Source: an uncultured bacterium (GTDB lineage: Bacteria > Bdellovibrionota > JACOXK01 > 2-02-FULL-40-11). Taken from it: 25,518 nt of DNA. The stretch lies in contig CAZDSE010000001.1 in assembly GCA_964507905.1 (NCBI GenBank), positions 1 to 25,518 of the forward strand. The letters run 5' to 3'. The notes beneath the pieces are model-generated. The model did no database searches. It saw only the letters and a program-made list of their open reading frames with translations, and was not told where the DNA came from. Both the position numbers and the translations under genes were made by a program. Position 1 is the first letter of the stretch. Every line of letters begins with the position of its first letter. Below, piece after piece: positions 3,327 through 25,518 of this stretch.

Positions 3327-3372
3327 ACAGTGGATTTTACCTCATTTATTTTCTTAAAATCAAAGTTTATTA

Positions 3373-3401: not shown

Positions 3402-3431
3402 CAATCTCTGGTTTTGATTGGGGGAAAAAAT

Positions 3432-3977: not shown

Positions 3978-3983
3978 TATTCA

Positions 3984-4859: not shown

Positions 4860-4862
4860 CTT

Positions 4863-7663: not shown

Positions 7664-7666
7664 TCC

Positions 7667-8332
7667 CTAAAATAAAAACAAATGCTCCAACCACCGTCCC
7701 ACCAAAAATACCGGCCACGCCACATAGCTTAAAACCCCGGTCATCATCAATGCCAAGAGCACAATCATTCCACTCATGGGATGAATCGATTCAAAAAAAC
7801 TTCGAATATTGTCTGGCAAAAATCGCCCAATAATTTTGGATCCATCCAGAGGAGCAATGGGAAGTAAGTTAAAGAAACATAACATTAAATTGAGCCGGAT
7901 GCCAATCACCGTCAAATCCTGAAACATTCGAATGGATTCCGGCATGAAAACCCCAGAACCAAAGCTGGTCACCATCCCAAATATAAAGGCAGATATAAAT
8001 GCCAAAATAAAATTAGACCCAGGACCTGCCAAAGCCACCCAAAACATATCTTCCACCCGCCGACGAAAATTCAAGGGATTGACCGGCACTGGCTTTGCCC
8101 ACGCAAACGGAATCCCGCCCCAAAACACATATAATAATGGAAGAACAACGGTCCCTATGGGATCCAAATGAGGAATGGGATTTAAGGTCAACCGGCCCAT
8201 GAGCTTCGCCGTCGAATCCCCCTTCCGATATGCCACCCACCCATGACAATATTCATGGATCGTGAGCGACAACACAAATATCGGAAAATACAATAGCAGC
8301 AAATGCACTTTGTCCATAGAGACAATGTACAA
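7667..8332 (-). CDS. Site-2 protease family (peptidase M50B) membrane metalloprotease
   Basis: HEYCHG (HExxH), GRLTLNPIPHLDPIGT, VALAGPGSN, FNLLPIAPLDGSKI (NxxPxxxLDG). The start is TTG 8332 or, more likely, ATG 8317. Confidence 0.92.
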   Translation of the reverse strand: MYIVSMDKVHLLLLYFPIFVLSLTIHEYCHGWVAYRKGDSTAKLMGRLTLNPIPHLDPIGTVVLPLLYVFWGGIPFAWAKPVPVNPLNFRRRVEDMFWVALAGPGSNFILAFISAFIFGMVTSFGSGVFMPESIRMFQDLTVIGIRLNLMLCFFNLLPIAPLDGSKIIGRFLPDNIRSFFESIHPMSGMIVLLALMMTGVLSYVAWPVFLVGRWLEHLFLF

Positions 8333-8363: not shown

Positions 8364-11300
8364 TTAATTGTGCCCTATCTCATAAATAGAGATAGTATAA
8401 AATGCTGAACTAAATGGATTTGTCATCGTAGTACACGAGTAACCGAATCCATTTCTATGAACAACTCCTATATATGATGCAGCAGGATTCGTTATGACTT
8501 TTTGAATGATGTTTGAAGTAGTGGTCAAATTTTGAGATAAACCATAATTTAATCGATTACAATCCCAATCGGCAAAGGCTTTGGCCATAGATTGATTAAA
8601 GGTCGGGAGACTGATCTGTACACTTTCTAAAAAATTCCATGACGGATCCAACAGAACCAATTTATCAACCGTCCCTGCATAGTTAAGCCTTGGGGCAAAT
8701 AAAATCCAATTATTTTGAAGAGGAGATATATTTTTTATATCAATAATATTTTCTGTGGAACTGACATAATTCGACAGTTTGGCTTTCAGATCTATTGGAG
8801 CTGAAAATACTTTTGAGTTGATATCAAAAGTGTACAGCTCGAAACTATTTTTAGATGCCACAAAATAAATCGTGTTATCGGTTGCCTTCAGAAGTCTCAT
8901 GTTTTCAAAATATTTATCTTGACCATATTCTTGATTGCTTAAAATCGCATTACTAAACGCCGTTGCACCATAAGTACTTCTCGAAGATTTTATAATTTGA
9001 TTACTGGCCGAAGCTCCATAGTCCTTAAACAAAAGCCATGAGAATAAAAAGTTGGATCCTTGGTTTACCACACCTAAAATAGAGGCATCGGTAACTGGCT
9101 CATAATTCACATCTACGCCAAGATCGGTGCTTAGAAAATCCTTAATCAGTCTTTTAGATTTTGTAGATTTGTTAATTTCCAAAAGACTTAGAGCTTTAAA
9201 ATTATCCCAAGCCCCCCCCTCACTTAGAAAAGCAATTTGTGTCAATGATGGGTCACTTGGAACATCAGAGACTACGATCTGAGGTCCGTAATAGTCCGTA
9301 CCCCCAGCCAACATATTTTCAGATGGAGAAGTCGAAAATGAAGCAATTTTTGAACAGCCATTGTTATATACATGAACCACTTGTGGTGGGAGTATGGCCT
9401 TCGTCGAACAGTTGGTATTATAGAAATCATCACAAATAATGGTTTCACTACCGGTAGCGTAATTAATATTTTTTTCGTATACATAAACATCCCCATTTTG
9501 TCCCAATGCAAATTTGGCTGCAAACGGCGCATAAAAAGGAAGATCTCGAGCCACAAACGCCCCTTTAAGATAAGGAAAATATGCATTCGCGGGGGCTTTT
9601 AGTTCATCGTAGGGAATATCGGTCACGCTACATTTATAAGCTGGGCAAAGTATTCCCGTGCATGTCTCAGAGGGGGCAGGAGGAGGTTCAGCAATAATGA
9701 GATCTGAAGACAAGGAGCTCGCCCCTTGTTCATACCCTGGATCTCCAGGATAGAGTAAAATATGCCCCATAATTTTAAATCCTGATTTGGGAACCGTGAT
9801 GGGACCTCCCAAATAAAATTGCGTATCTTTGAAATAGTATTCTGCCGTCGCTGGAGGAACCCATATCGAAGTAGAGGTCATAAAAGTACCAAGCAATGCG
9901 GCGGTAGCCGAGGGTTGTACACATTGATATCCTGTCGTTGATAATCCAGTTTTGGACGTCCCTGCTCCATAACCATAATCCGAAACTGAGTTGGTGTAGA
10001 AAAATGCGGGTCCTGTCATATTGAGTTCTGTTACGACAAACTTATCTAAAGGAAGCTTATAACTTACAGAATCGGAAGAAATATAGGGAGACGAACCAGA
10101 ATAAGCATTCATCACCGTCATCTTATTTCCCACAAAGTTGATCCCATCGCTATTATAGATATATTCATCTTTGGGCAATCCTTGATCTGTAAAAAGATTG
10201 AGAGAAAAAGCCTGATTGTTTTTTATCCCTTCCGTATTTTGATCGTTAAATGTAACTTGAGCTTGATTAATTGAAAAATTTAAATTTGGGAACATCCGAT
10301 AACTATACTGGACTTTTGTACAATTCCGATTCTGCAAGGAGACGTAGGAAAATATCCCAGTCACGGAAAATGGAATGAGCACATGGGAAACATTCACCGG
10401 CTTTTTAAAGGCCACTTGCCACCCTCCATTGGGAAAGATGGGGTTCGAGCTGGCTCTATTCATGTTAAAGTAATAGAGATCTCTTCCCACCCAATCATTG
10501 TATGGATAAGCCCCTGGAACCTGAAAAGATTGGATCACATCCGATGCAACGAGATCTTGAAGAGGTGAAAATCTGATGGCACCAATATTTGGTGCAAACC
10601 GATATTGCACTGTTTTAGATATGATCACACCATTATCACTTCTCAAGGCCTCAAGCTTAAAGTATTGAATTCTTTCAGTATCGCTTTTCCAATATCTCAG
10701 AAGTGAATCATACGTTCTGGCCGATGCATCCAGTTCAACCGGCTGAGACATCCCCAACAAGGTTGAAAAATCGGCCTTTTCAGACAGAGAAACTCTAAAC
10801 TTTGAAATCACACGATCCGAACTGCCCCGAAATGCATCCAAGACTTTCCATGAAAAACCAGATTGAGTATCAACAGAAGCACCGGGTTTAAAGCTGACCA
10901 AAGATTGATCTTGCCTTGGAGAAGTAATTTCAAACACATCGCATTCATCTTTGATTCCATCACCGTCGGAGTCTTGGCCGTTGTCATTGTATTGGCAAGA
11001 ATCACACGCATTTCCATAGCCATCGGAGTCTGAATCCGCTTGATCGCGGTTAGAGATAGAGGAACAATTATCAACAGTCCCTGTCACGTTAGAACAGGTC
11101 ATTAGACTACCATCACACCCATCTTGATCTGGGTCATTGGCCAAAGACTTTTTGGTAATGGGATCTATATCACAGACATTGTCAATTCGATCGACGTCAG
11201 TATCATTCCCAGAGTTGACTTGATTATGGCAGCTATCGCAATTTGCAAAACCCACCCCCGGTAGTCCATCCATGGCTTCTCCGGCAATGACTTTCCAATC

Positions 11301-14300
11301 GGTGGAAGCGGTAGAAGGTTCTATTCTTGCAGGTCTACATTCATGTAATGGATCTGTGGCATTGGCGAGAGGCCAATAGTCGACGAGATTATCTCCATCA
11401 GAATCATAGGCGGCTATCCCAGATTCACATGCATCTCCACCTCTGGCATCACCGTCTGAGTTTTTCTGATCATGATTTGCGATATTGGGACAGTTATCGA
11501 CTTGAGAAGCCCCGGTCTGAGGATTCTTACATGTTTGAAGTGTGGCATCACATCCATCTTGATCTAGATCATTGGGATAGGGATCGCATTTGGAATCAAT
11601 CCCATCTTTGTCCCCTTCCGTAAATGAATTTTGTTCATTATTTTTCCCCACACAACTGTCACATCGAACCGGTTGCCCATTCACCGTAACATCTGCTCCT
11701 TGAGTAATGGCTCCTGTGTCAAGATTGGTTTGGGCTCTTTGGCAGGCATTTAGAGGTTTATTTTCTTGTACCCCTTGTCTTCTTCTTTTCGCCCAATCGA
11801 GCCAGGTACTTTGTACCCCTTTATGATATTCGGGTTGTAAGTCTTGATCCGTATCTAGGGGATATGGATCACAGACATCTCCAACGCCATCCCCATCAGA
11901 ATCCATTTGATCAAAGTTTTTATCAAATGTCGTATTACTACAGTTATCACAAAACACACTCCCAGTACTGCAATCAGGGATTCCATCATTATCCAAATCT
12001 CTGGACGTATCCACAATTTGATTTAGCTCTGAAATATAATAGTAATCGCAGTTATTTCTAATCCCATCTAAATCGGCATCTAAAGAAGTATTCCCGATTT
12101 CTGATCCTGTTAATGTGCAAAAATTTCCTTCGCATGCATCTCCACAATTGTGGATATCTTTAGACCCACCAGACACTTCTACTTTACAAGAGTTATTGGA
12201 ATCCAGTTGATCTGAGTTTAAAGCACTGGCGCAGTTATCACAGCTATCTCCCACGCCATCTCCATCGCTATCTGATTGCGAGTAATTATAAAGTTGATTT
12301 TGAGTTAAAGATGGATATTTTTTGGGACTGCAGTTATCACACACATCATAGATGCTATCCAGGTCTAAATCATCCAAGCTTCCCGGCTGGTTTGGCCCAT
12401 TGTATACATTCCGACATGACGGAGATTCTTGACTATCTGCGATCCCGTCACTGTCTTGATCAGCGAATACAACATAGCTAACTATAGACTCCCCACTTTG
12501 ATTGCCCACACTGTCTCTGGCAGAGGCTCTCACAATCACACTTTTTGTATAACTGAGATTTACCGTAGGCCCTTGAACGGTTTGAGAAGTAATGAGTCCA
12601 CTGTTTGAGGCATCTTTGACTTCATAGAAAATCGTCGTTCCTGATTTATTTTCTGTTGAAAGCGTTATGGCAATACTATTTGAATAATTGGTATTAGATT
12701 GCCCAGGGGTAATGGTCATTGAGGGTGCTTGATTATCGATGGTATATTTAAATCCACTTGAAAGTGCTTCATTAGTTGCCTGATCCACACAAAGCGCATA
12801 CAGTATAAATTCCTGGTTTCTTGGAATTTTATTCTTATCACTATCGGATAATAATTTTGGGTAAATATATTGAGATGTGGCTGTGGGAACTTGATTCACC
12901 CCCCAATAAATACTGGCTTTTAAATTCTCTACCCCTGAGTCTGTACATTTAATCCCAAAATAACTAAAAAAGTTACTTTCATTATATGCAGTTTGGGAAG
13001 AAGGACTCATCTGGGGCTCTGAGGCTACTTTCTTAAACTCGATACTATTATTTAATTTTGCTCCTGCATTTTGTGCCAAATCTATTGCAAATGCTCGAAT
13101 AGTTGCTGTATCTGAAAGGGGTACTTCCGCATACCCCCCCGTGGCTCGAATTGTCTTTCCAGTGGCATCATTGGGATCGGGTTCTACGGGAGTGCCACTT
13201 CCATAAGTAATCGTATAATAAATAGTAGCAGTCGTATCTCTGACCGTGCTGTCTATAGACTTTTTGGCTTCTATTATAAATTTCTTACCAATATCTTTTA
13301 TCCCATACAGTCCTCCTATTGGATTCCCTTGTGGACTAAAGTTAACGACTGGCAGAGTTTTATCCAACTCATATTCTCTTTTTACTGGGGTTTGTGTTAT
13401 ATTTCCACTCACATCTTCCCCAATGACTTTTATAATCGTTACCCCTTCATCAGAAATCGTATCGATCACTTTGGGAAGCGCTGAAACTGTGACATCCATT
13501 TTATTGGTGTAGCTGGCTTTAGTAACAGTACAATCCGTGCCATTTAACACCCTGCACCAATACACAGTTTTAATATCACTATCCGCATTGTCCAATACAA
13601 CGGATATGGCTTTATTGGTTAATCGGGTTATTGGACTAATCGATAATACTGGAGCCATGCTATCTATGGCATAAGAAACCTCTTGGGTCTGACTTTGATT
13701 CCCCACACTGTCTTTTGCACTGGCTCTTACTATAATAGACTTTGTATAACTTCGACTCACTGTAGGCCCTTGGACCGTTCCACTTTCAAGTACACTGATT
13801 TGGTTTATGGCATCCAATATAGAATATGTAATTGTGGTCCCTGTTTTATTTTCTGTTGAAATGGTAAAATCCACTTTATTCGCATATGGAATCGAAGACT
13901 GACCTGGGCTTATTGTAACGGAAGGTGCCAATGTATCTATTGTATATTTATATCCAGCTGCAGATGTTCTACTTTCATTATTGGCCTCATCCACACACAG
14001 CGCATGAATCGTAAATTCAGCGTTTCTGGGGATTTTGTCCTTATCGCTATTCGATAAAACTTTAGAATATAAAAATTTTAAATCCTTTGTGGGAACTTCA
14101 TTAATCCCCCAATACAGTGTGGCTTTTAAATTCTCTGCCCCTGAGTCTATGCACTTAATCCCAAATAAATTAAAAAAGTTACTCTCCGCATATATATCCG
14201 GCGAAGGACCCACTTGTACCTGGGAAGCATCTTTTTTAAACTCTATCCGATTGCTAGAAGCCTCTCCTGCGTTTTGTGCCAAATCTTTTGCAAATGCTCG

Positions 14301-16490
14301 AATGGTGGCTGTATCTGAAAGAAATTCTTCCTTATACCCATTGGTTGCTGTCTTTGTCACTCCCGTATGATCATCCGGATTGGGTTCTACTGGAACATTA
14401 CTCCCATACGTAATCGTGTAATAAATCGTAGACCCACTATCTCTCTTATTATTATCTTTGGGATTAATCGCTTCTATACTTACTTTTTTGGGAATGTCTA
14501 AACTTCCATACGGCCCACCTCCCAATGGATTATATTTAATCACAGACTTGGTTGTATCTAGCTCATACTCCTTCTTATTGGGTTGAGACAAATTCAAATC
14601 ACTGTCTTCTGCAATGAGCTTTATAATGGTTATTCCCTCATTAGAAATCGTATCGATCACTTTGGGAAGCTCGGCCTTGGTGACATCCATCTTTGAAGTG
14701 TAAGTGGTTTTACTAACCGTGCAATCAGGCGCATTTAATGCCTTACACCAATAAATTGTTTTGATATCACTGTGTGTAGAATCTACTTTTACAGATATGG
14801 CTAAATTATGGAGCCTTTCATCCGGCATAATCGTTAACTCCGGAGCAATGCTATCTATCGTATAGGTACTTTCCAAAAGAGGCGTAGACATATTCCCCGC
14901 TCTATCTTTCACAAATGCTTTAATCACATTTTGTCCCTGGGTTGTAAGCCTTGGAAGCGTAAATGAATATGGTAAATCAAATACATCCGCTCTATTTGTA
15001 TTTTGATCACTGTCTAAAGGCGCCAATTTGTTATTGGTCCAATACATGATGCCGGCTTCCGATGACTGAAGCTTTGCCACCACATCCGCTGTATATCTTC
15101 CTTGAATTGGGGTTATTGAAAGTGTTGGAATTTCTTTGTCCAATACAAACCGAAATGGACCTTCTTTTGAAAAATTATTAAGCGCATTATACGCACTAAA
15201 TCGCAACGTAAATACTTTGGCCTGCCCCACATTTACCTTATACGGATCTTGGCTCCCCACCCTTATCCCTGTAGATGCATCAAATTTTAAAGACGTCTTA
15301 TCTGCATCCTCTGCCACTTCCCCTTCTTTTAAACTGTAATATATCTCATCTGAGCTATTGGCCGTTAAAAGCATTATCTTAAAATCTTCATTATAATAAC
15401 TTCGGTCAGATAACGCCGTAGCCGCCACTCGATCCACTTCAATCTTTAGCCCTGTCGGTGCTTGCGTATCCACCTTATAGCTCGCATTAAATATCCCACT
15501 CGTATTCCCATAACTGTCCCTTGCCCTCGCCTTTATCACTGTCCAGTCATTTATCTTTTGTATCGTTATTTTTCCCCCATGCATCACATGCATACTCCGC
15601 ATCTCACCAGCCACGATGGGATCACTCCCATCCTCTGTATAAAAAATCTCATCCGTCGCATCCTTCGCAAATAACGTAACATCAAATGTAGCTCCTCGAA
15701 TGGTGTCCGCCACAGGAGAAAAACTCACCCCGGGCGCATCCTTATCAATCGTTATTATTAATCCTATCTCCTCACTCTTCTTATCCACTCGGTCCATGGC
15801 TATGGCTTTCACCACATAGGTCTTTTCTTCCCCGGGATTGGCTGTTAAATTTAATTTCTTGGATGAAGACATGTCCCATACCAAATTCGAATCTATGGCA
15901 GCTATTGAAGAGACCATCGAATATTGTACTTTTTTAATATCCGTAGAACCATCTGCCAAAATCTCTACCCCTATATCCTTTGTGTATATAATCCCACGAT
16001 CCGTCACCTGATCCGCTCTCACTGGAGTTATATTGACCAAACTATCCATTAATCCAATGTCTGATGTCAAAAACCTAATCTTTGGATCATCCACATCGAT
16101 CTCATAATGAAGAGTCTTAACTTCTGTCTTTTGAAGCCCAAATACAGAAAAAAACGCCACATCTGTTGTCTCTATTATTGGTATCGCACTCTGTGGCACA
16201 TACTCAAAACTACTCTCCTCTTGTGGCACTATCCCATCCAACGCATAATATATCTTTGCCCCCACCCTCGATGCTTCCAAAAATACATCTATCGGCACCC
16301 CATATAACCCCTCAGGTTTACTTGCCCAGCTCGTTAGCTTGTCCTCCACCGCAGCCTTCCCAGCTCCTTGTTCCAACTTCCCTGGCCCCTCCCCGGTAGG
16401 TGAACACGACATAAAAGCCCATGACCCAAAAAAAAGAAAAAAACATAATATTGTCTTTTTTGAAATTAGTTTTAAAGAATTATATATCAT
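8364..16490 (-). CDS. Giant (2708 aa) predicted lipoprotein adhesin-like protein: Ig/CHB_HEX_C-like repeats, thrombospondin type-3 repeats and a C-terminal binding region
   Basis: Signal MIYNSLKLISKKTILCFFLFFGSWAFMS-C29. Repeated IYY..DG..P / ID..AP / A.D..GN Ig-like units. Many DxDxDGxxDxCDNC motifs. C-terminal Fn3-like, discoidin-like (GGWQVAFKKPVNVSHVLI) and propeller-like segments; these domain names are by-eye calls. Confidence 0.8.
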   Translation of the reverse strand: MIYNSLKLISKKTILCFFLFFGSWAFMSCSPTGEGPGKLEQGAGKAAVEDKLTSWASKPEGLYGVPIDVFLEASRVGAKIYYALDGIVPQEESSFEYVPQSAIPIIETTDVAFFSVFGLQKTEVKTLHYEIDVDDPKIRFLTSDIGLMDSLVNITPVRADQVTDRGIIYTKDIGVEILADGSTDIKKVQYSMVSSIAAIDSNLVWDMSSSKKLNLTANPGEEKTYVVKAIAMDRVDKKSEEIGLIITIDKDAPGVSFSPVADTIRGATFDVTLFAKDATDEIFYTEDGSDPIVAGEMRSMHVMHGGKITIQKINDWTVIKARARDSYGNTSGIFNASYKVDTQAPTGLKIEVDRVAATALSDRSYYNEDFKIMLLTANSSDEIYYSLKEGEVAEDADKTSLKFDASTGIRVGSQDPYKVNVGQAKVFTLRFSAYNALNNFSKEGPFRFVLDKEIPTLSITPIQGRYTADVVAKLQSSEAGIMYWTNNKLAPLDSDQNTNRADVFDLPYSFTLPRLTTQGQNVIKAFVKDRAGNMSTPLLESTYTIDSIAPELTIMPDERLHNLAISVKVDSTHSDIKTIYWCKALNAPDCTVSKTTYTSKMDVTKAELPKVIDTISNEGITIIKLIAEDSDLNLSQPNKKEYELDTTKSVIKYNPLGGGPYGSLDIPKKVSIEAINPKDNNKRDSGSTIYYTITYGSNVPVEPNPDDHTGVTKTATNGYKEEFLSDTATIRAFAKDLAQNAGEASSNRIEFKKDASQVQVGPSPDIYAESNFFNLFGIKCIDSGAENLKATLYWGINEVPTKDLKFLYSKVLSNSDKDKIPRNAEFTIHALCVDEANNESRTSAAGYKYTIDTLAPSVTISPGQSSIPYANKVDFTISTENKTGTTITYSILDAINQISVLESGTVQGPTVSRSYTKSIIVRASAKDSVGNQSQTQEVSYAIDSMAPVLSISPITRLTNKAISVVLDNADSDIKTVYWCRVLNGTDCTVTKASYTNKMDVTVSALPKVIDTISDEGVTIIKVIGEDVSGNITQTPVKREYELDKTLPVVNFSPQGNPIGGLYGIKDIGKKFIIEAKKSIDSTVRDTTATIYYTITYGSGTPVEPDPNDATGKTIRATGGYAEVPLSDTATIRAFAIDLAQNAGAKLNNSIEFKKVASEPQMSPSSQTAYNESNFFSYFGIKCTDSGVENLKASIYWGVNQVPTATSQYIYPKLLSDSDKNKIPRNQEFILYALCVDQATNEALSSGFKYTIDNQAPSMTITPGQSNTNYSNSIAITLSTENKSGTTIFYEVKDASNSGLITSQTVQGPTVNLSYTKSVIVRASARDSVGNQSGESIVSYVVFADQDSDGIADSQESPSCRNVYNGPNQPGSLDDLDLDSIYDVCDNCSPKKYPSLTQNQLYNYSQSDSDGDGVGDSCDNCASALNSDQLDSNNSCKVEVSGGSKDIHNCGDACEGNFCTLTGSEIGNTSLDADLDGIRNNCDYYYISELNQIVDTSRDLDNDGIPDCSTGSVFCDNCSNTTFDKNFDQMDSDGDGVGDVCDPYPLDTDQDLQPEYHKGVQSTWLDWAKRRRQGVQENKPLNACQRAQTNLDTGAITQGADVTVNGQPVRCDSCVGKNNEQNSFTEGDKDGIDSKCDPYPNDLDQDGCDATLQTCKNPQTGASQVDNCPNIANHDQKNSDGDARGGDACESGIAAYDSDGDNLVDYWPLANATDPLHECRPARIEPSTASTDWKVIAGEAMDGLPGVGFANCDSCHNQVNSGNDTDVDRIDNVCDIDPITKKSLANDPDQDGCDGSLMTCSNVTGTVDNCSSISNRDQADSDSDGYGNACDSCQYNDNGQDSDGDGIKDECDVFEITSPRQDQSLVSFKPGASVDTQSGFSWKVLDAFRGSSDRVISKFRVSLSEKADFSTLLGMSQPVELDASARTYDSLLRYWKSDTERIQYFKLEALRSDNGVIISKTVQYRFAPNIGAIRFSPLQDLVASDVIQSFQVPGAYPYNDWVGRDLYYFNMNRASSNPIFPNGGWQVAFKKPVNVSHVLIPFSVTGIFSYVSLQNRNCTKVQYSYRMFPNLNFSINQAQVTFNDQNTEGIKNNQAFSLNLFTDQGLPKDEYIYNSDGINFVGNKMTVMNAYSGSSPYISSDSVSYKLPLDKFVVTELNMTGPAFFYTNSVSDYGYGAGTSKTGLSTTGYQCVQPSATAALLGTFMTSTSIWVPPATAEYYFKDTQFYLGGPITVPKSGFKIMGHILLYPGDPGYEQGASSLSSDLIIAEPPPAPSETCTGILCPAYKCSVTDIPYDELKAPANAYFPYLKGAFVARDLPFYAPFAAKFALGQNGDVYVYEKNINYATGSETIICDDFYNTNCSTKAILPPQVVHVYNNGCSKIASFSTSPSENMLAGGTDYYGPQIVVSDVPSDPSLTQIAFLSEGGAWDNFKALSLLEINKSTKSKRLIKDFLSTDLGVDVNYEPVTDASILGVVNQGSNFLFSWLLFKDYGASASNQIIKSSRSTYGATAFSNAILSNQEYGQDKYFENMRLLKATDNTIYFVASKNSFELYTFDINSKVFSAPIDLKAKLSNYVSSTENIIDIKNISPLQNNWILFAPRLNYAGTVDKLVLLDPSWNFLESVQISLPTFNQSMAKAFADWDCNRLNYGLSQNLTTTSNIIQKVITNPAASYIGVVHRNGFGYSCTTMTNPFSSAFYTISIYEIGHN
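10938..12461 (-). repeat. Thrombospondin type-3 (Ca2+-binding) repeat region, ~508 aa
   Basis: DSDGDGVGDSCDNC, DSDGDGVGDVCDP, DADLDGIRNNCD, DLDNDGIPDC, DSDSDGYGNACDSC, DSDGDGIKDECD and others. Confidence 0.85.
12474..14865 (-). repeat. Tandem duplication of a ~397-399-aa (about four-domain) module within the giant gene
   Basis: Copy 1 TIDSIAP...VSYAID (~13671-14865); copy 2 AIDSMAP...VSYVVF (~12474-13670); period 1191-1197 nt. Shared exact DNA includes GAAATCGTATCGATCACTTTGGGAAGC. Confidence 0.9.
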
Positions 16491-16533
16491 ACAGTCTCAG
16501 CTTACGTTCCACATCCCACCTAAATACTTCTTA

Positions 16534-16542
16534 AGTTTACCA
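16534..16542 (-). promoter_or_regulatory. Possible extended -10 promoter (TGgTAAACT) upstream of the 2708-aa gene
   Basis: TGn-TAnnnT motif 44 nt upstream of ATG 16490, preceded by a long A/T tract. No clear -35. Confidence 0.3.
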
Positions 16543-16644
16543 TAAAAATAAAAAAAGAAATAAAAATTTTAAAAAAACAAATCAAGATTCTAATCAAATT
16601 TTAATCCGCCATTATTAAACATCCGTCCTAATTTTTTATACCCA

Positions 16645-19600
16645 CTATAACTCCGTAGGTTCGTTGCAGATAAAATAATGATAATATTTGTCATAGTCGG
16701 AAGAGACATCTCTTAGGACAGGCCCAATAATCTTTTCTTTGGGCAGGACATTCCTCCGATGGACCATGATAAAATGCTGTCCTAGATTTGCGACATAGAT
16801 GTGATTCCCATAGGCTCCTACAATTCCCGATCCAAATGAACCTGCGCTTGCCACATTGTAATAAAAAAGATCATTGGTGATGGGAGTCGATTTCCCGGGT
16901 GGAAGCGATGTAAAAAAGTGCTTAAAGAGCCACTCATTGTAGCGAATACTCGCCTGAAATCCAAGAGGTGGAAGCTGGACTGAAGCATCTCTAAATTCAC
17001 AATTTTTGAGTCGATCCCCTTCCCTTTGATATACAATCGAAGGCAATGAACCGTGCCCAATGACGAGTTCGCCTCTCTTAAACGCACCAAAATCGAGTCC
17101 CCGGGTAAAGCTGGTCGCACTGCTGTCGCCCATCCATTCGGTATAGCCAGAGAATTGACTATCTGGAGATCGTGTCAGATCTATGCTTGAAAGAACGACG
17201 AACGTATTTGCATCAAACGCCCGCACACTGGCCCTAGAATGGTAACTCGATCCATCCCATACAGTCACAAAGAGAATCCCATCATCCGTTGCTTCAATAT
17301 TCCCAATTCCTTTAACCAATCTTGGAGCTACGCTTTTTAATGGGATTTCCGCTAAAATATTTCCATTATGATCATAAACATCTATTTTCCCAGCGGTTAC
17401 ATAATGATCAGAATTCATCACCGCATTCACCACATAAATTTTATCTTTAAAAACGGCCAATGACCTCGGCTCATACCCAATCGGAATGACTTTGGGATCA
17501 GCGGAGAGATTGTTCATATTAAAAATCTGTAAGCGTTTATTTTTGGTATCGGATACCCACAAATCCGTATGATCACCCTCTTCAACAAATACCGTGTCTA
17601 TTGGCTCATTAAATTCACCCATATTGGCACCCAATACATTCTTATTCACATTAGACGGATCTATTTTACCAAGCACATATTTGGGCATACAAAAACAGAC
17701 TTCGTTATTGGGCACTGCATAAACGCTGCTACTCCCACCCGGTATGATGCCTCCATAAAATGTCTGATAAACTGGCTGATTGGATTTTTCCAAACATTCT
17801 TTTTTATCAAAAATTTGAATCCGATGATTGTAGCGATCAGCAACACCAATATATTTAGAATTGATACTGATTTTTCCGGCTTCCCCTGCTCCCGGAATAG
17901 ACGCTTGGTTATTCGTAATGGCCCATGATTTCGGAATGGATGCTTGGCTCGCACCTCCCGAGACCAAAGAAAACTTCTGGGGTTCCCAGTACACTTCAAA
18001 ATTAGGCCGCATTTGAGGGCTCAGTCTAAAAAATCCTTTCCGACTCAAAACTTCATTATAATAGCTGTCTTCTGTTTCTCCATATTGCTTGGGATGATAA
18101 CACCCAATAAATCCGCTAAAAAAAGTCGGAGCCGGATCGCCCCAAGCCTTTCCACTGCTCACGGTAAACTCTGCATTGGCTTTGGCTTGGGCCCCACTTA
18201 TATCTGTAACCACGAGTTCTACTTTATAAATTCCTGCGACATTGGGGACATAGGTCACTTGATTGCCAGTGGATTGTAACGATTGTTTGACGCCACCGGG
18301 TAATTCAATGGACCACGTAGAGGTCACCGCATCCCCATCGGGATCCAATATAGTGCCTTTCATTTTCACTTCGCCCAATGTTTCTATTTCACCCAGCGGA
18401 TCTAAAACAATCGCCGCTGTTGGAGGTCTCGATTGAATTCTAAAGTTTTGAGATTTGGTTTCGGTGGCTTCTCCATCGCTAACCGCCACAGATACTGCAA
18501 ATGATCCGTAATCTGAACCCGTCATTTTTGAATTGAGGGCCTCACTATTTTCAAGAGTCGCTCCACCACTGACCATCCAACTAAAGGTCAGCTGATCATT
18601 ATCAATATTTTGAACAGGGATCCCCAATGTATATGATGCTCCTTTTAAGAGTCTCGCCAACCCTTCGATGATATCCACTTTGGGATCAAAAGAAATCTCT
18701 CCCAGCTTGGGCGCTGCATTCACAACCGTAAAGCTCGACAACTGAGATACCTCCAAGCCTTGTTCGTCTTTTACGATGAGTGTAAACGGAATGGGACCTT
18801 TTTGTTGAGGTGTAAAAGTCACTGATTTTCCCTTCAGTGATTCGTTCAGCACACTTAATTTCCATTCAATAGTTAGCTTATCCACTGTGCTTTCAAGATC
18901 TTGAACATCTGCGGTTAATGTTGCAAGCTGTCCTTTATATATGGCGTCCGGTTGGGCCAGAATGCCTGTAATTTTTGGGGCATGATTTTCCACGCGAAAG
19001 GATTGAACGACAGACTGAGTTTGTCCCCCTTGAGGATCTTTGACAATCAATCTCAATTCATGATCTCCAAAGTCCGATATGATAAAGATGACATTTTCAG
19101 ATAAATTTTTTGTTTTTAATTCAATGACTCCATTGGGTTTGATCAATTGCCATTCGCAGGTCAATGCATCTAAATCCAAATCTGATGCAATGCATTGCGC
19201 GTCGATCGGTTTATTAAAAATAATGGGTTCGGTGAGAAGTTTAATCTGGGCATTCGCAGGATCTCTGTTTTGCGTCGCAAATTTTGTTTCAGTCGATGCA
19301 CTATCCATTGAATCTGTCACCTTGAGCTTAATGACGTATTCACCATACGATGGAGGCATAAAAATAGGCTCAGCGACTTTTAATGTCTCAAGCCGCAAAG
19401 TCCCCTTCCACACCTCCCATGCATATTGGAGTGTATCTGAGTCTGGATCCAATGCATCAGATGACAAACTCACTTGTTGGCCCACCATATACGGAGATGT
19501 TTTGGCATAAATTTGAGTTAACGTGACCGACTTATTCAGAGTCGTAAAAGATGCTATTCGTTCAGATTTCGCCCCTTGGGCATCGGTTAAAATGAGTTTA

Positions 19601-22452
19601 ACATCATATTTTCCTTTGGAAGAAATTTCAAATCGGGGACTTTCCATTATTTTTTGATCCGTTTTTAAAATTTCTGCACCCAAGCTGTCTTTGACACTCC
19701 ACGCATAGACGAGAGAGTCTTTTTCCAAATCATCTACTTGGGCACTTAAAGTTAAAAAGTCATTTAAGTAAATCGCTGTCGGATCCATTTTAATTCCCGT
19801 AATCACCGGAGCGGCATTATCAACCATGATGGACTTTGACTGACCAACGGTATCAAATGAATCGGTCACCTTGAGCTCAATATGATAAGATTTTCGTTCT
19901 GGAATCTCAAACTCTCCCATTTTTCCGCTCAAAGATTTAATCACTTGATCTTGATCATCCAATAAGTTCCATTCATATGAAATGAGTGCCACTTGACGAA
20001 TATCCGGATCTGAAGCGGTTGCACTCAGAGTCACTTTCCCGCCTTGATTCACATGCAAAGGAGTTACACTCATCGACTCAATGACTGGTTTTCGATTGAG
20101 AACATCTATTGAAATGATGTCTGGCGCACTGTCGCTCTCTCCATCATTCACCACCAATGACACATTATAATGACCGGGTTCTATGGCTTTAAAGATGGGA
20201 CTGGATGATGTCGAATCTGCTCTAGAGAGAGAGGCTTTGTCAGAATCCACTTTCCACATAAATTTACTGATGCCACTATCACTCCTGGCTTGAGCGGCAA
20301 TGACCACTCCTTCATCAATAAATGCGGCCGATTTTGCCGATGTCAAAGAGGTTATTTCAGGTGGACGATTATCGACAGCAATGGACGCATGCGATGGATC
20401 GCTTTTGGATACTCCATCTGAAACAATGAGCTCCACATTGTATGTCCCCTTATGGGTGGGCAAAAAACTTAACTGTGATTTTATTTCGTCAACACCCAGC
20501 GCCACTGATGATCCCGAGGGTTGATTGATGAGCTGCCACTTATATGTCAGCCGCCCTTGGTCCTCAGTATCCGTATCATAACTCTTCGTTCCATCTAATT
20601 TAACAAGCTCTCGACCCACCATAGTGGTTGGCGATGCACTTGCAACGGCCACAGGTTTTTCATTCGCCACATGAACTTCTCTGTGATCCTCTGAAAATCC
20701 AAAACCATCGGTCACGCTCAAAATAATGTCATAGGTTCCGGATTGAACCACCTCAAAAGAGTTTTCAATACCTTGTAATTCTATTAAATCTCCACCAGGC
20801 TTTTTAATTTTCCACGAGGTCGACAACTGATCTCCATCTGGATCATCTTCGGTCAAACTTTGAAGACGAATTTTAGAAAAAATATGAGCCTCTTCGGGTG
20901 TGACTGAGGCAATGGCTTTGGGAGGCCTATTTTCTAAGTAAAGTGTCACGGGTTCACTTCGAACAATGGTATCTCCATCGGACACCGTCAGACGAACCTC
21001 ATATGAAGATTTTTTTGAAAAGGAGATATCCATTTCGACGCCAGATTTTGACGACACCATACTCCCATCTTCCTTATCCCGGATTTCCCATTGATGGGTG
21101 AGTGGATCTCCATCCAAATCAGCTCCCCCATGGCTAAACAAATGAAAAACTTCTCCAACTGATCCTTTGAGGGGAACAGCCAGAATGATGGCCCGCGGGG
21201 ATTGGTTTATAATTCTGATACTATCTTCTTTTGTTGTTTTTCCGCCCAATCCATCTGAAACTTCTAATTTAATTTTTTGGGTTTTCTTGGTTGCCACCGT
21301 GTAGCTAGATTCTTTGCCTTCTAGCGTTTTTTCGCCATCATTGATGACCCATTTGACGTTAAACTCATCCCCATCCGGATCTGTACTTCCTCTGGCATCC
21401 AGATGAATTATTCGACCCACTGTGGCTTCTTTGACATCCATCTTAAGATCCGCCACTGGATTTCGATTGATCACGGTTAGTTTTAAAATGCTGGATGCAA
21501 CCACCGCTGTGCCATCGGTGACTGCTGCTTGGATTTCATATTTTCCCCGTTTGGTGGCTTTAAAATGTTGCTTTTCTCCCGAGAGATCTAAAGCAAACTC
21601 CTTTAAATCATCTATCCCTTTAATTTTCCACGTGGTGCTCAATATATCCCCATCGAGATCAAAGGGCTGCGAGAGACTGAAATCGACGGTATCATCTAAG
21701 GTTGCGGAGAACCGATTCATAATCGCTTTAAATGTCGGAGCTGAATTGATAATCTCAATTTCTTTTTCGACAATATCGGATTGCGATTCACCGTCTGACA
21801 CCAAAAGCTGAATTTTATATTCCCCTTTTTTGTCGGCTTTAAAGGAAGTCTGAGCGACTGATGTGCTCGCCAGTTCAGTTTTGGATCCATCGGGTCTTTG
21901 TAAATTCCAAGAAAAATATAACCTGTCTTGATCTGGATCAGAACTTTTGGAGCCGTCTATTTGAAAAACAGACCCGACAATTGGAGTTTGAATTTTGGAA
22001 ATTTCCATCATTGCTATGGGGACTCTATTTTTGACTCGAATGGTAATGGGAATAGGCTTTGATGTATGTTTTCCTGCTTTTGCTACGAGCCACGCCACAT
22101 AGGTTCCCTTTTTATCTGGAACAAATACGGGATTTGCAAACTTCGCATCATTTAAAATACTGCCGGATTCTTCCGGTGCAATGAGTCTCCATTCGTACGT
22201 AATATTTTTTTGAGGAAGTTTCCCTGCGTAAATTTGGACCGAATCTCCTGGCTTAACTTCTTCGCTGTTTTCCACATAAGGAGAAACATTGTCCAAAACG
22301 GATGGGCCAATTTCTTCTTCGGCTGTTTTTGTTTGAGGAGCCTCAGATGAACTCGTGCCCTTGTCTTTTCCGCATCCTTGCCAGGTAATTGCAAAAAATA
22401 CAACAATAAGAACGAGATTAAATTTCATCCACAAACGTTCCACTGATTTCAA
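16645..22452 (-). CDS. Large (1935 aa) predicted lipoprotein with 15 tandem PKD-like Ig domains and a C-terminal NHL-like beta-propeller region
   Basis: Signal MKFNLVLIVVFFAITWQG-C (likely ATG start at 22428). Repeats follow N-x-x-P-x-A...DPDGD.L.Y.W...G.Y.V.L.V.DG (~18151-22306). Head has GVADRYNHRIQIF, WVSDTKNKRLQIF and YVANLGQHFIMV. Confidence 0.85.
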   Translation of the reverse strand: MKSVERLWMKFNLVLIVVFFAITWQGCGKDKGTSSSEAPQTKTAEEEIGPSVLDNVSPYVENSEEVKPGDSVQIYAGKLPQKNITYEWRLIAPEESGSILNDAKFANPVFVPDKKGTYVAWLVAKAGKHTSKPIPITIRVKNRVPIAMMEISKIQTPIVGSVFQIDGSKSSDPDQDRLYFSWNLQRPDGSKTELASTSVAQTSFKADKKGEYKIQLLVSDGESQSDIVEKEIEIINSAPTFKAIMNRFSATLDDTVDFSLSQPFDLDGDILSTTWKIKGIDDLKEFALDLSGEKQHFKATKRGKYEIQAAVTDGTAVVASSILKLTVINRNPVADLKMDVKEATVGRIIHLDARGSTDPDGDEFNVKWVINDGEKTLEGKESSYTVATKKTQKIKLEVSDGLGGKTTKEDSIRIINQSPRAIILAVPLKGSVGEVFHLFSHGGADLDGDPLTHQWEIRDKEDGSMVSSKSGVEMDISFSKKSSYEVRLTVSDGDTIVRSEPVTLYLENRPPKAIASVTPEEAHIFSKIRLQSLTEDDPDGDQLSTSWKIKKPGGDLIELQGIENSFEVVQSGTYDIILSVTDGFGFSEDHREVHVANEKPVAVASASPTTMVGRELVKLDGTKSYDTDTEDQGRLTYKWQLINQPSGSSVALGVDEIKSQLSFLPTHKGTYNVELIVSDGVSKSDPSHASIAVDNRPPEITSLTSAKSAAFIDEGVVIAAQARSDSGISKFMWKVDSDKASLSRADSTSSSPIFKAIEPGHYNVSLVVNDGESDSAPDIISIDVLNRKPVIESMSVTPLHVNQGGKVTLSATASDPDIRQVALISYEWNLLDDQDQVIKSLSGKMGEFEIPERKSYHIELKVTDSFDTVGQSKSIMVDNAAPVITGIKMDPTAIYLNDFLTLSAQVDDLEKDSLVYAWSVKDSLGAEILKTDQKIMESPRFEISSKGKYDVKLILTDAQGAKSERIASFTTLNKSVTLTQIYAKTSPYMVGQQVSLSSDALDPDSDTLQYAWEVWKGTLRLETLKVAEPIFMPPSYGEYVIKLKVTDSMDSASTETKFATQNRDPANAQIKLLTEPIIFNKPIDAQCIASDLDLDALTCEWQLIKPNGVIELKTKNLSENVIFIISDFGDHELRLIVKDPQGGQTQSVVQSFRVENHAPKITGILAQPDAIYKGQLATLTADVQDLESTVDKLTIEWKLSVLNESLKGKSVTFTPQQKGPIPFTLIVKDEQGLEVSQLSSFTVVNAAPKLGEISFDPKVDIIEGLARLLKGASYTLGIPVQNIDNDQLTFSWMVSGGATLENSEALNSKMTGSDYGSFAVSVAVSDGEATETKSQNFRIQSRPPTAAIVLDPLGEIETLGEVKMKGTILDPDGDAVTSTWSIELPGGVKQSLQSTGNQVTYVPNVAGIYKVELVVTDISGAQAKANAEFTVSSGKAWGDPAPTFFSGFIGCYHPKQYGETEDSYYNEVLSRKGFFRLSPQMRPNFEVYWEPQKFSLVSGGASQASIPKSWAITNNQASIPGAGEAGKISINSKYIGVADRYNHRIQIFDKKECLEKSNQPVYQTFYGGIIPGGSSSVYAVPNNEVCFCMPKYVLGKIDPSNVNKNVLGANMGEFNEPIDTVFVEEGDHTDLWVSDTKNKRLQIFNMNNLSADPKVIPIGYEPRSLAVFKDKIYVVNAVMNSDHYVTAGKIDVYDHNGNILAEIPLKSVAPRLVKGIGNIEATDDGILFVTVWDGSSYHSRASVRAFDANTFVVLSSIDLTRSPDSQFSGYTEWMGDSSATSFTRGLDFGAFKRGELVIGHGSLPSIVYQREGDRLKNCEFRDASVQLPPLGFQASIRYNEWLFKHFFTSLPPGKSTPITNDLFYYNVASAGSFGSGIVGAYGNHIYVANLGQHFIMVHRRNVLPKEKIIGPVLRDVSSDYDKYYHYFICNEPTEL

Positions 22453-22457
22453 CCCTC

Positions 22458-24530
22458 TTATTCTAAGACAAATTCTCCCTCTGTATCAAAATTTAAATCT
22501 TGTTTCCATTGATCCGGATCAAATGTCACCGGAGGAATACCGGCCGTAAATTCTGCGACTTGATCTTTATCCGCTCTCAAATGAATCACATTGCCTTGAG
22601 ATCGCATATGGAGTTTTAAAATATTTAAAAGATTACTGACTTCTGTGATGTGTTCTGTATCTTTGGAAGTGTAATAGGTACGACTATCCAGAATAAACCG
22701 ACCTTTTACATCCACACCATTGATCAATGGAAGGGAGCTTAAAGCAACATTATTTTCTATAATATACGAAATTTTTTGATTATTCTTCGTAAAGCCGAGA
22801 TTTATAAGATGCATTCCATTCATAAACACATTGTTTTTAATGAGTCTCAACCCTTGATCATAATTCCCTTGTAAAAACGCTGTTCTAAACGTATCAAAAC
22901 AGTTGTTTTGAACCACAATCACTGGCTTTTCCCATTCAATCGCTATTTTTTGATTCCACTTTTCCCCAGCATCATGCGTCCGAATGGGGATGCGCACATT
23001 TTTAAAGTGATTGTTTTGGATAACAATATCGAGATCATTCTCACTGGGTCCAATCATCTCATATTCATTGTCATATGTGTTGGGCCAACCTCCTAAAAAC
23101 TTAAGTCCATGAATCGTCACATGAGATACATAGTGGGCCATCGCAAAAATAACGGCCTGCCCATGCGCTTGTTTTAAAATGGGGATAAATCCGTCTCTTG
23201 CTCGAATGATCAATCGTTTATTCAGTGTATTATCCTGCCAATGATTAATCAGGGGTATATAGACTGCTGAAGTAAAATCATATTGAGAATTATCTTGAAT
23301 CTCGATCACAAAATCTTCCAACAAGTGGGGTTTTGTATCGATTAAATTGTGAGCGGGCAAATAAGTGGTCAACTGGGCAACTGCATCTTTTAAATGTGAA
23401 AAGCGATTGGGACAATCTGGACTGGGTACAATGTCTTTGGCCACAATAAACGCATTTTCTTGATCCTGACTACATTCAATATCCTTATAATAATGAAGAT
23501 CAAATCCAGGCTGTGGGAGTTTTGGAATATCCGCACAAGAAGTGATTGTGGCTACGCCAGTGCCTGTGCCACCTCCAGTACTTGTCCCACCACCAGTGTC
23601 AGTTCCTCCACCAGTCCCGGTACCAGTCCCTGTCCCACCACCATCGCCAGTTCCTGTCCCACCACCAGTGTCTGTTCCGCCACCAGTCCCTGTTCCACCG
23701 CCGTCATTAATAATCGGCGCGTCAATTGAAATATTGACAGAGGCGTAATGTGCCCCATCATGTGACACAATAAAAATGTTGGCCATCCCCGGGAAATCTC
23801 CTGGCAGCAAATGAAATTTAATTCGCCCTTCTTTTGAAGAAATCAAAGATCCCTCAATAATCTCACCTCGAGAAGATATCACGACAAATTCTTTATCTTG
23901 TGAAATTCCCAAATCATCAGACTCAAATTCAAAAGCGCTTTTAGACCCGGCCACGAGCGATCCAGACGTTACGGCATGAATGGCTCTGGGCTCGCGAACT
24001 GAAAAAACAAATGTTTGATTCCCGGGAACCTTTGTCCCTTGAATTCCAAACATTGCCCCCAAAAATGTAATGGATAAACTTTCTTCACTTGAAACTTGAT
24101 CTGGTAAAAAGCCAAGTCTTAATTCTTTTCGATCTCCTTTGAGTACGGTGATGGGCGAAATCTTACTCCCATCACTGGCCCGTAAAACTTCGATCCCCTC
24201 ATCAAGAGTACTTTCCTCGGGAAATTCATTGGCCATAAAGAAAATGAGTTTGGAGTTGGATGGGAAATAAAATACTTTTTCCATTTGTTCTTTGGCACCC
24301 AGACTTAAAATCTCAACCGGCATAACCACCTGTCCACTCATTTCATCAAAAAAACCACCGTATGACACATTCAACACTTCTTTTAAACTCTGCTGCTCAT
24401 CCGATTCTTGAGTGGCAGTGACCGTCGCGGGAGACTCACTCCCCTTGTCCTTTCCGCAAGACACAACAAGACTCACCATTAAAATATAAACATAAAAAAT
24501 AATTTTCTTGTGCATTGAAGACTTCATCAT
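22458..24530 (-). CDS. 690-aa predicted lipoprotein: Ig-like domains, Gly/Thr linker and a right-handed parallel beta-helix (pectin-lyase-like) domain
   Basis: Signal ...ILMVSLVVS-C25. IVAKD...F..LKDAV, LIIRARDG.IP.L and VTIHGLKF motifs, plus asparagine-ladder repeats IQNNHF, VQNNCF, IKNNVF, IENNVA. Confidence 0.7.
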   Translation of the reverse strand: MMKSSMHKKIIFYVYILMVSLVVSCGKDKGSESPATVTATQESDEQQSLKEVLNVSYGGFFDEMSGQVVMPVEILSLGAKEQMEKVFYFPSNSKLIFFMANEFPEESTLDEGIEVLRASDGSKISPITVLKGDRKELRLGFLPDQVSSEESLSITFLGAMFGIQGTKVPGNQTFVFSVREPRAIHAVTSGSLVAGSKSAFEFESDDLGISQDKEFVVISSRGEIIEGSLISSKEGRIKFHLLPGDFPGMANIFIVSHDGAHYASVNISIDAPIINDGGGTGTGGGTDTGGGTGTGDGGGTGTGTGTGGGTDTGGGTSTGGGTGTGVATITSCADIPKLPQPGFDLHYYKDIECSQDQENAFIVAKDIVPSPDCPNRFSHLKDAVAQLTTYLPAHNLIDTKPHLLEDFVIEIQDNSQYDFTSAVYIPLINHWQDNTLNKRLIIRARDGFIPILKQAHGQAVIFAMAHYVSHVTIHGLKFLGGWPNTYDNEYEMIGPSENDLDIVIQNNHFKNVRIPIRTHDAGEKWNQKIAIEWEKPVIVVQNNCFDTFRTAFLQGNYDQGLRLIKNNVFMNGMHLINLGFTKNNQKISYIIENNVALSSLPLINGVDVKGRFILDSRTYYTSKDTEHITEVSNLLNILKLHMRSQGNVIHLRADKDQVAEFTAGIPPVTFDPDQWKQDLNFDTEGEFVLE
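23559..23705 (-). repeat. Gly/Thr low-complexity linker built of 6-aa units (GGGTGT / GGGTDT / GGGTST)
   Basis: Degenerate 18-nt repeats, e.g. CCACCACCAGTGTC occurring twice. Confidence 0.9.
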
Positions 24531-24579
24531 CTTTTCTTCTCGTCGACCTTAGCTCCAGCAAACGTTCTACATATTTCTA

Positions 24580-24608
24580 ATTATACCACGGTTTATCTGA
24601 AATCAAAG
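24580..24608 (-). promoter_or_regulatory. Extended -10 sigma70 promoter for the 690-aa/1935-aa operon
   Basis: Minus strand reads TGgTATAAT (24588-24580), a perfect extended -10, 50 nt upstream of ATG 24530. The -35 position reads CTTTGA (poor). Confidence 0.7.
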
Positions 24609-24615
24609 ACTTTGA
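24603..24615. promoter_or_regulatory. 13-bp palindrome TCAAAG-A-CTTTGA overlapping the -35 position; candidate operator
   Basis: Perfect 6-bp arms with a 1-nt centre. Confidence 0.4.
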
Positions 24616-24685
24616 ACGAGAAATTTTCGTCGAAAACATGGTCCTTCCAAATTATAAAAATTTAATGAGTTTCTCACTTTTCCCT

Positions 24686-24711
24686 ATTTTCCGAGCAATA
24701 GCTCGGAAAAT
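24686..24711. promoter_or_regulatory. 26-bp perfect inverted repeat of unknown role
   Basis: ATTTTCCGAGC-AATA-GCTCGGAAAAT, 11-bp arms. No 3' U-tract on either strand. Confidence 0.5.
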
Positions 24712-24849
24712 CTGGCCTTACCCCTGATGTGAACCCCGTTTAGACAGGGCACCCTAACTCTTGTATAAAGTCAGAAAAGATATTGCCTCAAAGCCTTACG
24801 GTCCGGTTTTAAGCTTTAAGGAATCTGGTTTTAAATTTTTCTTAATAGC

Positions 24850-25167
24850 TTATTGGACGTTCAAATGTAATATGGTCTCCGATTGCTGCGTAGAGTCTAA
24901 ATTGGTTGCTTTAAATTTAAGTTCATAGGATTTTTGCCCTTTAAATTCATAATAAAGCTGAGGGAGCTCAAAAAAACCAGGAACTTCTTCGATCACACTT
25001 CCTTGGACCACTCCCCCAACAATGGGATATGACTTCACCACACTCTCAGATTCTTGAGCTAAGTTTCCATCTAAAAACCATTGATAATGAAATCGATGGC
25101 TTGGATTAACCCTCCCAAAAAGCGATATGGTGTATTTAGATTCTGGTGAAAAAGTGGTGATTGATTT
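24850..25167 (-). pseudogene. Start-less 105-codon open frame encoding a PKD/Ig-like domain (gene remnant)
   Basis: The frame is open from 25167 (after TAA 25170-25168) to the stop at 24850: ...RFHYQWFLDG...YELKFKATN...ETILHLNVQ*, resembling the PKD units of the 1935-aa protein. The only start codon (GTG 25041) lies mid-domain. Confidence 0.45.
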
Positions 25168-25180
25168 TTAAAATTAGAAA

Positions 25181-25518
25181 CTACGGATTAACCGGTGTTA
25201 AGATCTGGATTCGATAGTTCGCCGGATCGGAGATAATAATTTCATTTTTTGGGCCGAAGGAAGCAAAGGGCCTAATATTAAGAGACCTTACAGACCCATA
25301 AAATTCCTCCATTCCTCGATATTCTCCCATCTGCCCTAACGCAACTCCTTGCTCACCGAATGAAAGAATAGATTCTCCGGTCGGAGAATAAACATGCCCA
25401 AAATATCGATCATTTATGCCAAGCTCAGACTGAAACACCAACACATGGCCCAGAGGACCAATGTCAATCCAAGATTTTGTATAAGAACTATCTGATTTTT
25501 GAATTTCAAACTCATCAA
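25181..25518 (-). CDS. C-terminal end of an NHL-repeat protein (5' end outside the window)
   Basis: The frame stays open to the window edge (DEFEIQKSDSSYTKSWIDIGPLGHVL...). SFGEQGVALGQM and IIISDPANYRIQIL match NHL consensus FG..G...GQF / I.V.D..N.RIQVF. Confidence 0.75.
   Translation of the reverse strand, partial: DEFEIQKSDSSYTKSWIDIGPLGHVLVFQSELGINDRYFGHVYSPTGESILSFGEQGVALGQMGEYRGMEEFYGSVRSLNIRPFASFGPKNEIIISDPANYRIQILTPVNP

Follow-up and report, generated by a model that had tools for sequence, protein, structure and literature searches.

Do adjacent genes for very large, apparently lipid-anchored proteins build one surface apparatus, or are they separate surface-protein genes that share a neighbourhood? 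The question is raised by a stretch of 25 518 nucleotides (nt) of contig CAZDSE010000001.1 (GenBank assembly GCA_964507905.1), from an uncultured bacterium, the whole of which is referred to here as the window. Three complete genes in it, all on the minus strand, encode predicted lipoproteins of 2708, 1935 and 690 amino acids (aa), which we call A, B and C. In an earlier note on this DNA the three had been read as an uncharacterised surface-appendage system of giant, N-terminally tethered lipoproteins, in which a panel of binding or depolymerising heads is presented at different heights on long stalks. Our analysis favours another reading, to which we assign a probability of roughly 0.55: A, B and C are independent, lineage-specific modular lipoproteins, adhesin-like, laid out in the manner of the Lig proteins from Leptospira and most probably surface exposed.

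Genes A (8364..16490), B (16645..22452) and C (22458..24530) are complete, co-oriented open reading frames (ORFs) of the minus strand, of exactly the lengths first reported. The 1935 aa of B are counted from a TTG start; from the ATG at 22428 the protein has 1927 aa. Lipoprotein signals were judged by the PROSITE PS51257 rule, which combines a basic n-region, a hydrophobic core and a lipobox cysteine. All three N-termini show these features, with the cysteine at Cys29 in A (lipobox ...AFMSC), Cys27 in B (...TWQGC) and Cys25 in C (...VVSC), and with Ser, Gly and Gly, respectively, at the +2 position, as the earlier note had seen. When all ORFs of 80 aa or more in the six frames of the window were scanned in the same way, a lipoprotein-type N-terminus was found in A, B and C and in no other ORF. 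That of A (aa 1–29, MIYNSLKLISKKTILCFFLFFGSWAFMSC; 16404..16490, minus strand) has a basic n-region and a 15-aa hydrophobic core with Ser at +2, and each of the three lipobox cysteines is followed by a low-complexity tether of 25–30 aa.

As called publicly, A starts at Met27 (16412), immediately ahead of the cysteine, which gives a protein of 2682 aa from which the signal peptide is omitted. Neither candidate start is preceded by a good Shine-Dalgarno sequence. We favour the longer, signal-bearing start, because the 26 additional residues read as a textbook signal peptide, and because a cytoplasmic location would be unlikely for a protein with cysteine-rich TSP3-like and immunoglobulin (Ig)-like regions. 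The signal-coding stretch itself (16412–16490, minus strand) holds homopolymer runs of T7 to T8.

Behind these N-termini, A and B both carry a repetitive beta-sandwich spacer and then a unique C-terminal region, so that the structural half of the original proposal, anchor, spacer and unique end, is supported. The stalk of B (aa 82–1417; 18202..22209, minus strand) is made up of 15 PKD-like modules, the number given in the earlier note. Pfam PKD_4 and PKD match it with 207 and 183 bits, above the gathering score, and a profile built from B itself recovers 13 strong modules (E<1e-19) and two weak ones. The C-terminal region of B (aa 1435–1935; 16648..18150, minus strand), proposed earlier as an NHL-like head, does match Pfam NHL, at 37.3 bits against a cut-off of 20, and just two stretches within these last 500 aa account for the match. 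Compared with the Protein Data Bank (PDB), the same region weakly matches two NHL domains, those of Thin and TRIM71, and it probably folds as a beta-propeller. A word-indexed protein search with this end returned no homologues, a weak negative in that the query protein itself was not recovered.

The stalk of A (aa ~50–1341; 12468..16343, minus strand) comprises some 12–13 Ig-like beta-sandwich modules of 90–110 aa each, most of which close with the motif ...Y-x-[IVL]-D-x-x-[A/x]-P. Its matches to Pfam CHB_HEX_C_1 and Fn3_assoc exceed the cut-offs, which bears out the Ig/CHB_HEX_C part of the stalk as first described. When a profile of these modules was compared with the PDB, the best match was the Ig-like extender of a Marinomonas adhesin (4p99, E=3e-4), and the others included streptococcal R28, a chitinase and antibody domains. 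A block of ~400 aa, equivalent to four modules, is tandemly duplicated (aa 522–942 and 920–1341, ~60% identical; 12468–14927), which indicates that the stalk has grown by segmental duplication.

The stalk is followed by an Asp- and Cys-rich, TSP3-like and presumably calcium-binding region (aa 1342–1855; 10926..12467, minus strand), with 9–11 DxDxDG motifs and 31 cysteines. The TSP3 assignment, also made in the earlier note, agrees with a match to NCBIfam throspo3_MtsC at E=3e-15, which is nonetheless far below that model's cut-off, while Pfam TSP_3 lies just under its own (18–21.5 bits against 25). A second internal duplication of A (aa 1579–1735 and 1714–1884) extends ~29 aa beyond the TSP3-like region into the C-terminal region.

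This C-terminal region of A (aa 1856–2708, 853 aa; 8367..10925, minus strand) is an orphan. A full phmmer search of 1.84 billion representative proteins with aa 1881–2708 found only the protein itself; a word-indexed search with the end of A found no match, again a weak negative from a search that did not recover its own query. It has no Pfam match even at E<=1, no relevant sequence match in the PDB even at E<=10, and no match to PHROGs or to plasmids, and a search for internal repeats gave nothing significant. Structure prediction, which had been proposed as a check, gave a single-sequence AlphaFold2 model with a predicted local distance difference test (pLDDT) score of 30, which is unusable. 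The discoidin (F5/8 type C) or propeller-like head that had been suggested for A thus finds no support in any of these searches, and the propeller-like reading in particular is rejected as unsupported, no significant internal repeats having been found.

For gene C, no family match was obtained for any part (Pfam at E<=1, NCBIfam and PHROGs; PDB at E<=10), and a word-indexed search of 5.8 billion clusters returned only C itself. Of the stalk proposed for C, the Gly/Thr-rich part stands, as a linker of 50 aa (aa 276–325; 23556..23705, minus strand) whose coding DNA is a degenerate tandem repeat with an 18-nt unit, and the Ig part is unconfirmed. The C-terminal region (aa 326–690, 365 aa; 22461..23555, minus strand) contains by-eye I-x-I-x-N-N repeats; a pattern search retrieves two of them (aa 502 and 538), and two looser copies can be seen near aa 565 and 590, the spacing being 25–36 aa. 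These motifs hint at a right-handed parallel beta-helix of the pectate-lyase kind, and a beta-helix head had been proposed in the earlier note. With neither a Pfam nor a PDB match, and with a single-sequence AlphaFold2 model of pLDDT 34, which is likewise unusable, the beta-helix is left unconfirmed.

How, then, might such proteins be deployed? They would be exported by the Sec route on a signal of the signal-peptidase-II type, and the Lgt/LspA pathway would acylate Cys29, Cys27 and Cys25, which would become the first residues of the mature proteins. The N-terminus, with its low-complexity tether behind the cysteine, would thus hold each protein at the membrane. Next would come the rod, formed by 12–13 or so Ig-like modules and the TSP3-like stretch in A, by 15 PKD modules in B, and by a short domain and the Gly/Thr linker in C; it would keep the unique C-terminal region clear of the membrane. 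The Asp/Cys-rich stretch of A may be stiffened by calcium, and the unique C-terminal regions most likely engage a ligand, for binding or for catalysis. On this account the clustering of the genes would reflect co-expression, at least of C and B, and local diversification of surface-protein genes, with no dedicated machine.

The size and the type of the repeats bear on the compartment in which these rods would stand. A typical Ig domain is ~4 nm long, so that 13–15 such modules would span ~50 nm if straight, which is beyond a typical periplasm. Arrays of PKD, TSP3 and Ig-like modules are typical of extracellular proteins, and the 31 cysteines and 9–11 DxDxDG motifs of A would suit an oxidising, calcium-containing compartment. 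The same considerations tell against the notion that A, B and C face the periplasm or stay at the inner membrane, as scaffolds inside the envelope: either the 15 PKD modules of B or the ~13 Ig-like modules of A would exceed the usual periplasmic width, and such arrays are characteristic of proteins outside the cell. That the window holds no gene for surface export, such as Slam or a type II secretion system (T2SS), speaks for an envelope-internal location, which we regard as quite unlikely.

Several points weigh against surface-exposed, adhesin-like lipoproteins, the reading that we prefer. The start of A is ambiguous, given the public call at Met27 and the want of a good Shine-Dalgarno sequence. 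The final compartment cannot be read from a lipobox, which is a poor guide to where a lipoprotein ends up (PMC7857515). At pLDDT 30 and 34, the models of the A and C ends leave binding as a guess, and these ends could be enzymes. Moreover, the quality of the contig sequence is imperfect, at least one frameshift being present (in leuS, described below).

The enzymatic alternative deserves separate consideration. A, B and C might be lipid-anchored or shed extracellular enzymes that forage on polymers, comparable to the glycan-degrading surface lipoproteins of Bacteroidota, and not adhesins at all. Chitobiases and hexosaminidases contain modules of the CHB_HEX_C type, and the matches of the A module profile include a chitinase. 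NHL propellers include lyases and lactonases, and the end of C, with its by-eye NN repeats, is reminiscent of the beta-helices of polysaccharide lyases. However, neither Pfam nor NCBIfam detected a catalytic domain in any of the three proteins, no SusC/SusD-like or transporter gene lies nearby in the window, and the beta-helix of C is unconfirmed. We therefore consider polymer-foraging enzymes unlikely, and the depolymerising heads of the earlier note go back to fold guesses made by eye, which are unconfirmed.

The layout of these proteins is not new. The Lig proteins of Leptospira combine a lipoprotein signal with 12–13 Ig-like domains and a C-terminal extension, are surface exposed, and are encoded in some Leptospira chromosomes by ligA and ligB in tandem (PMC7821625). 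The proteins studied here resemble LigA, LigB and LigC in having a signal and an elongated rod of tandem Ig-like domains, and LigB and LigC also in their large C-terminal end, which in these two Lig proteins is a non-repeat extension; like Lig, they would serve as adhesins held by a lipid anchor. The likeness is one of architecture only. The Lig repeats are Big_2 domains, whereas those found here are PKD in B and of the CHB_HEX_C/Fn3_assoc type in A, and Big_2 (PF02368) has no Pfam match in A, B or C, which excludes membership of the Lig family. Further differences are that A, with 2708 aa against ~1890 aa for Lig, possesses an additional TSP3-like region, that the C-terminal ends are unrelated orphans, and that nothing identifies the host as a spirochete. 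The term 'uncharacterised' remains apt, since neither the A end nor the C end has detectable homologues; the architecture is already known from Lig (PMC7821625). What is noteworthy here is the orphan ends and a short motif common to B and C (see below); the large, modular, adhesin-like lipoprotein is a known kind.

A second likeness is to the RTX giant adhesins, such as MpIBP/MpAFP of Marinomonas and SiiE of Salmonella, which likewise join an anchor, a long Ig-like extender and a ligand-binding end (the last being predicted here). The region II extender of MpAFP is the very structure (4p99, E=3e-4) that the A modules match best, and by analogy with the RTX adhesins a calcium-dependent stiffening of the Asp-rich region of A is plausible. 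The anchor, however, is a predicted N-terminal lipid in our proteins and not a retention module held in an outer-membrane channel. In Pfam and NCBIfam searches at E<=0.01, A, B and C contain no RTX nonapeptide repeats (HemolysinCabind or related) and no type I secretion system (T1SS) signal, and equally no autotransporter or type V secretion barrel, no sortase, PEP-CTERM or MYXO-CTERM signal and no C-terminal domain of the type IX secretion system; the absence of RTX repeats, an autotransporter barrel and a sortase motif had been noted before. The NCBIfam matches to MtsC and M36 arise through the TSP3 and PKD repeats only and are far below the cut-offs, and the C-termini of the three proteins are not hydrophobic.

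Do A, B and C nevertheless act together, as one coordinated system of giant anchored lipoproteins that share a hitherto unrecognised export route and carry heads at graded heights? The genes are adjacent and co-oriented, the lengths of their stalks differ, and a further NHL-like gene lies upstream of C. C and B probably form one operon, since the start of B lies 5 nt past the stop of C. In addition, B (22355–22374) and C (24439–24458), both read on the minus strand, have an identical C-G-K-D-K-G straight after the lipobox, which could serve as a common sorting signal. The coding DNA of this motif is identical at 16 of 17 nt between two proteins that are otherwise unrelated, and it is unlikely, judging from the sequences, that the motif has arisen by chance; it may be a lineage-specific cue for lipoprotein sorting. 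It also resembles C-X-K-(D/E)2, the export signal of Bacteroidetes lipoproteins (PMC5080379), having K at +3 and D at +4. However, B and C have a single acidic residue where that signal, C-X-K-(D/E)2-X, has two, and A, which reads C-S-P-T-G at the same place, has neither the Bacteroidetes signal nor the motif of B and C.

Other observations also stand against a coordinated system. Compared with one another, A, B and C have no detectable sequence in common except for C-G-K-D-K-G of B and C, and no common domain. The window contains no secretion, translocon, sortase, sorting or other accessory gene, the remainder of it, including the downstream neighbours of A, being housekeeping genes. No conserved cluster resembling A-B-C was found in the genomes scanned with A (GTDB species genomes) or in the metagenomes scanned with B and C (JGI). 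Accordingly, the co-oriented genes without dedicated secretion genes are as the earlier note described them, whereas the appendage system built upon them finds no support in shared sequence, in linked machinery, in a conserved gene order or in base composition, and we think it improbable.

A missing secretion gene is in itself not unusual, because export routes of surface lipoproteins vary: Slam, the T2SS or BAM are used in some bacteria, and Bacteroidetes and spirochetes employ an unknown route (PMC7857515). Like the Slam-, T2SS- and BAM-dependent surface lipoproteins of Gram-negative bacteria, A, B and C have an N-terminal lipid anchor and are presumed to be displayed beyond the outer membrane. 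Unlike typical representatives they are far larger, and they have no Slam (DUF560), T2SS or SusC/SusD-like gene nearby: no Slam gene lies next to A-B-C, either in 1–8332 or within the island itself, ~4 kb of the source contig lying outside the window, and no T1SS, T2SS, SusC/SusD-like or transporter gene lies near them in the window. A functional analogue may be seen in the mosaic adhesive trimer (MAT) fibres of Bdellovibrio, a predatory 'deltaproteobacterium' with a repertoire of surface fibres that end in variable C-terminal binding domains (PMC10769870). All MAT proteins have a conserved N-terminal domain (~130 aa) and a shaft built as a trimeric beta-prism (PMC10769870), whereas A, B and C have no common domain and no phage-fibre-like matches; nor does the word 'lipoprotein' occur in the main text of the MAT paper (PMC10769870).

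There is a slim chance that A, B and C are long lipid-anchored fibrils, up to 2708 aa in length and with new folds at their ends, which are exported through a route marked by C-G-K-D-K-G and distinct from Slam, the T2SS and the Bacteroidetes route. If this were so, the locus would disclose a new pathway of surface-lipoprotein display together with new ligand-binding folds. In bacteria other than Proteobacteria, Bacteroidetes and spirochetes, the routing of lipoproteins to the surface is an open question (PMC7857515), which the post-lipobox motif of B and C could help to define. Should the proteins be surface exposed, then A would be one of the largest adhesin-like proteins with a lipid anchor described so far, and the ends of A (853 aa) and C (365 aa) would represent folds without detectable relatives, possibly new binding or enzymatic domains.

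The absence of relatives has to be viewed against the sampling of the host lineage. A look-up among ~15 billion proteins clustered at 90% identity found six proteins of the window, namely tryptophanyl-tRNA synthetase, ScpB and agmatinase together with A, B and C. Each of them forms a singleton cluster, and all six derive from the same NCBI contig, 29 463 nt long, B being present additionally in a Logan read-set assembly. Since the housekeeping proteins are singletons as well, the organism has been sampled once, and the failure of the A and C ends to find homologues is in part a consequence of a lineage that is essentially unsampled. A found no match among the GTDB species genomes, C and B found none in the JGI metagenomes, and neither tblastn against phages and plasmids nor PHROGs gave a match. 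The main lesson of the locus is that surface proteins appear as orphans when their lineage is unsampled.

The nearest match of the leucyl-tRNA synthetase (LeuRS) is 68% identical and comes from a groundwater metagenome-assembled genome (MAG) labelled 'Deltaproteobacteria bacterium', obtained from a 0.1-µm filter fraction. The corresponding contig, JACQJD010000015, is the sole relative with more than 60% LeuRS identity; the matches that come next are from Firmicutes, at 58–60%. In this contig (146–1891) the divergent order of leuS and of the genes for pyruvoyl-dependent arginine decarboxylase, agmatinase and a GcvH-like protein (3330–5207, plus strand, in the window) is kept. These relationships bear on a further explanation, in which the organism possesses no conventional outer membrane, so that a lipid anchor is a surface anchor by default and the missing secretion genes are trivial. 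Beyond the one groundwater MAG, LeuRS does find its next matches in Firmicutes, and no outer-membrane gene was seen in the window. The nearest relative is nevertheless labelled as a deltaproteobacterium and has the local gene order in common with the window, which is itself too small to judge the presence of envelope genes. We regard this explanation as very improbable.

The position of A-B-C justifies the word 'island', by which the array had been described, but its composition does not. In G+C content, in G+C content at third codon positions and in codon usage, the three genes match their housekeeping neighbours; this native composition argues that the three genes are not a recently acquired island, and horizontal transfer of the island was rejected on these grounds. 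The spacer between B and A consists of 154 nt of AT-rich DNA, in which an AT-rich unit of 21 nt is tandemly repeated 2.1 times (16549–16593). Rfam and tRNA searches of the window gave no matches, and promoter and terminator scans of it gave the same result as shuffled sequence.

Upstream of C, the window breaks off within a further co-oriented gene, whose 3' end (25181..25518, minus strand; stop at 25181) encodes what appears to be the last blade of an NHL-like protein (…ISDPANYRIQIL). Another NHL gene had been described here; NCBIfam ScyF-NHL (E=0.006) and one motif speak weakly for it, and Pfam gave no match. Downstream of this gene, 17 nt past its stop, an open frame of 104 codons begins (24853..25164, minus strand) that has no proper start, the first usable one being codon 42. 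It had been taken for a remnant of a PKD gene, but it has no Pfam match and scores 1.8 bits against the PKD profile of B. To join it to the upstream NHL-like gene would require both a stop-codon change and a frameshift, and it is possibly a decayed C-terminal beta-sandwich domain.

On the other side of A, its end is separated by 31 nt from the gene for an M50-family peptidase, which lies on the same strand. This gene belongs to a housekeeping block (1–8332) that includes genes for a DUF6036 protein, LeuRS (leuS), pyruvoyl-dependent arginine decarboxylase, agmatinase and a GcvH-like protein, together with scpB, scpA, trpS and the M50-family peptidase gene itself. The leuS gene (823–3326, minus strand) is broken by a frameshift near 1407–1416 into ORFs of 658 and 183 aa. 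It is intact (860 aa) in the nearest relative, so that the frameshift represents either an assembly indel or a genuine break in a gene that is essential. A 20-nt unit is present as two tandem copies with 95% match (7615–7654) in the DNA that separates trpS from the gene for the M50 peptidase.

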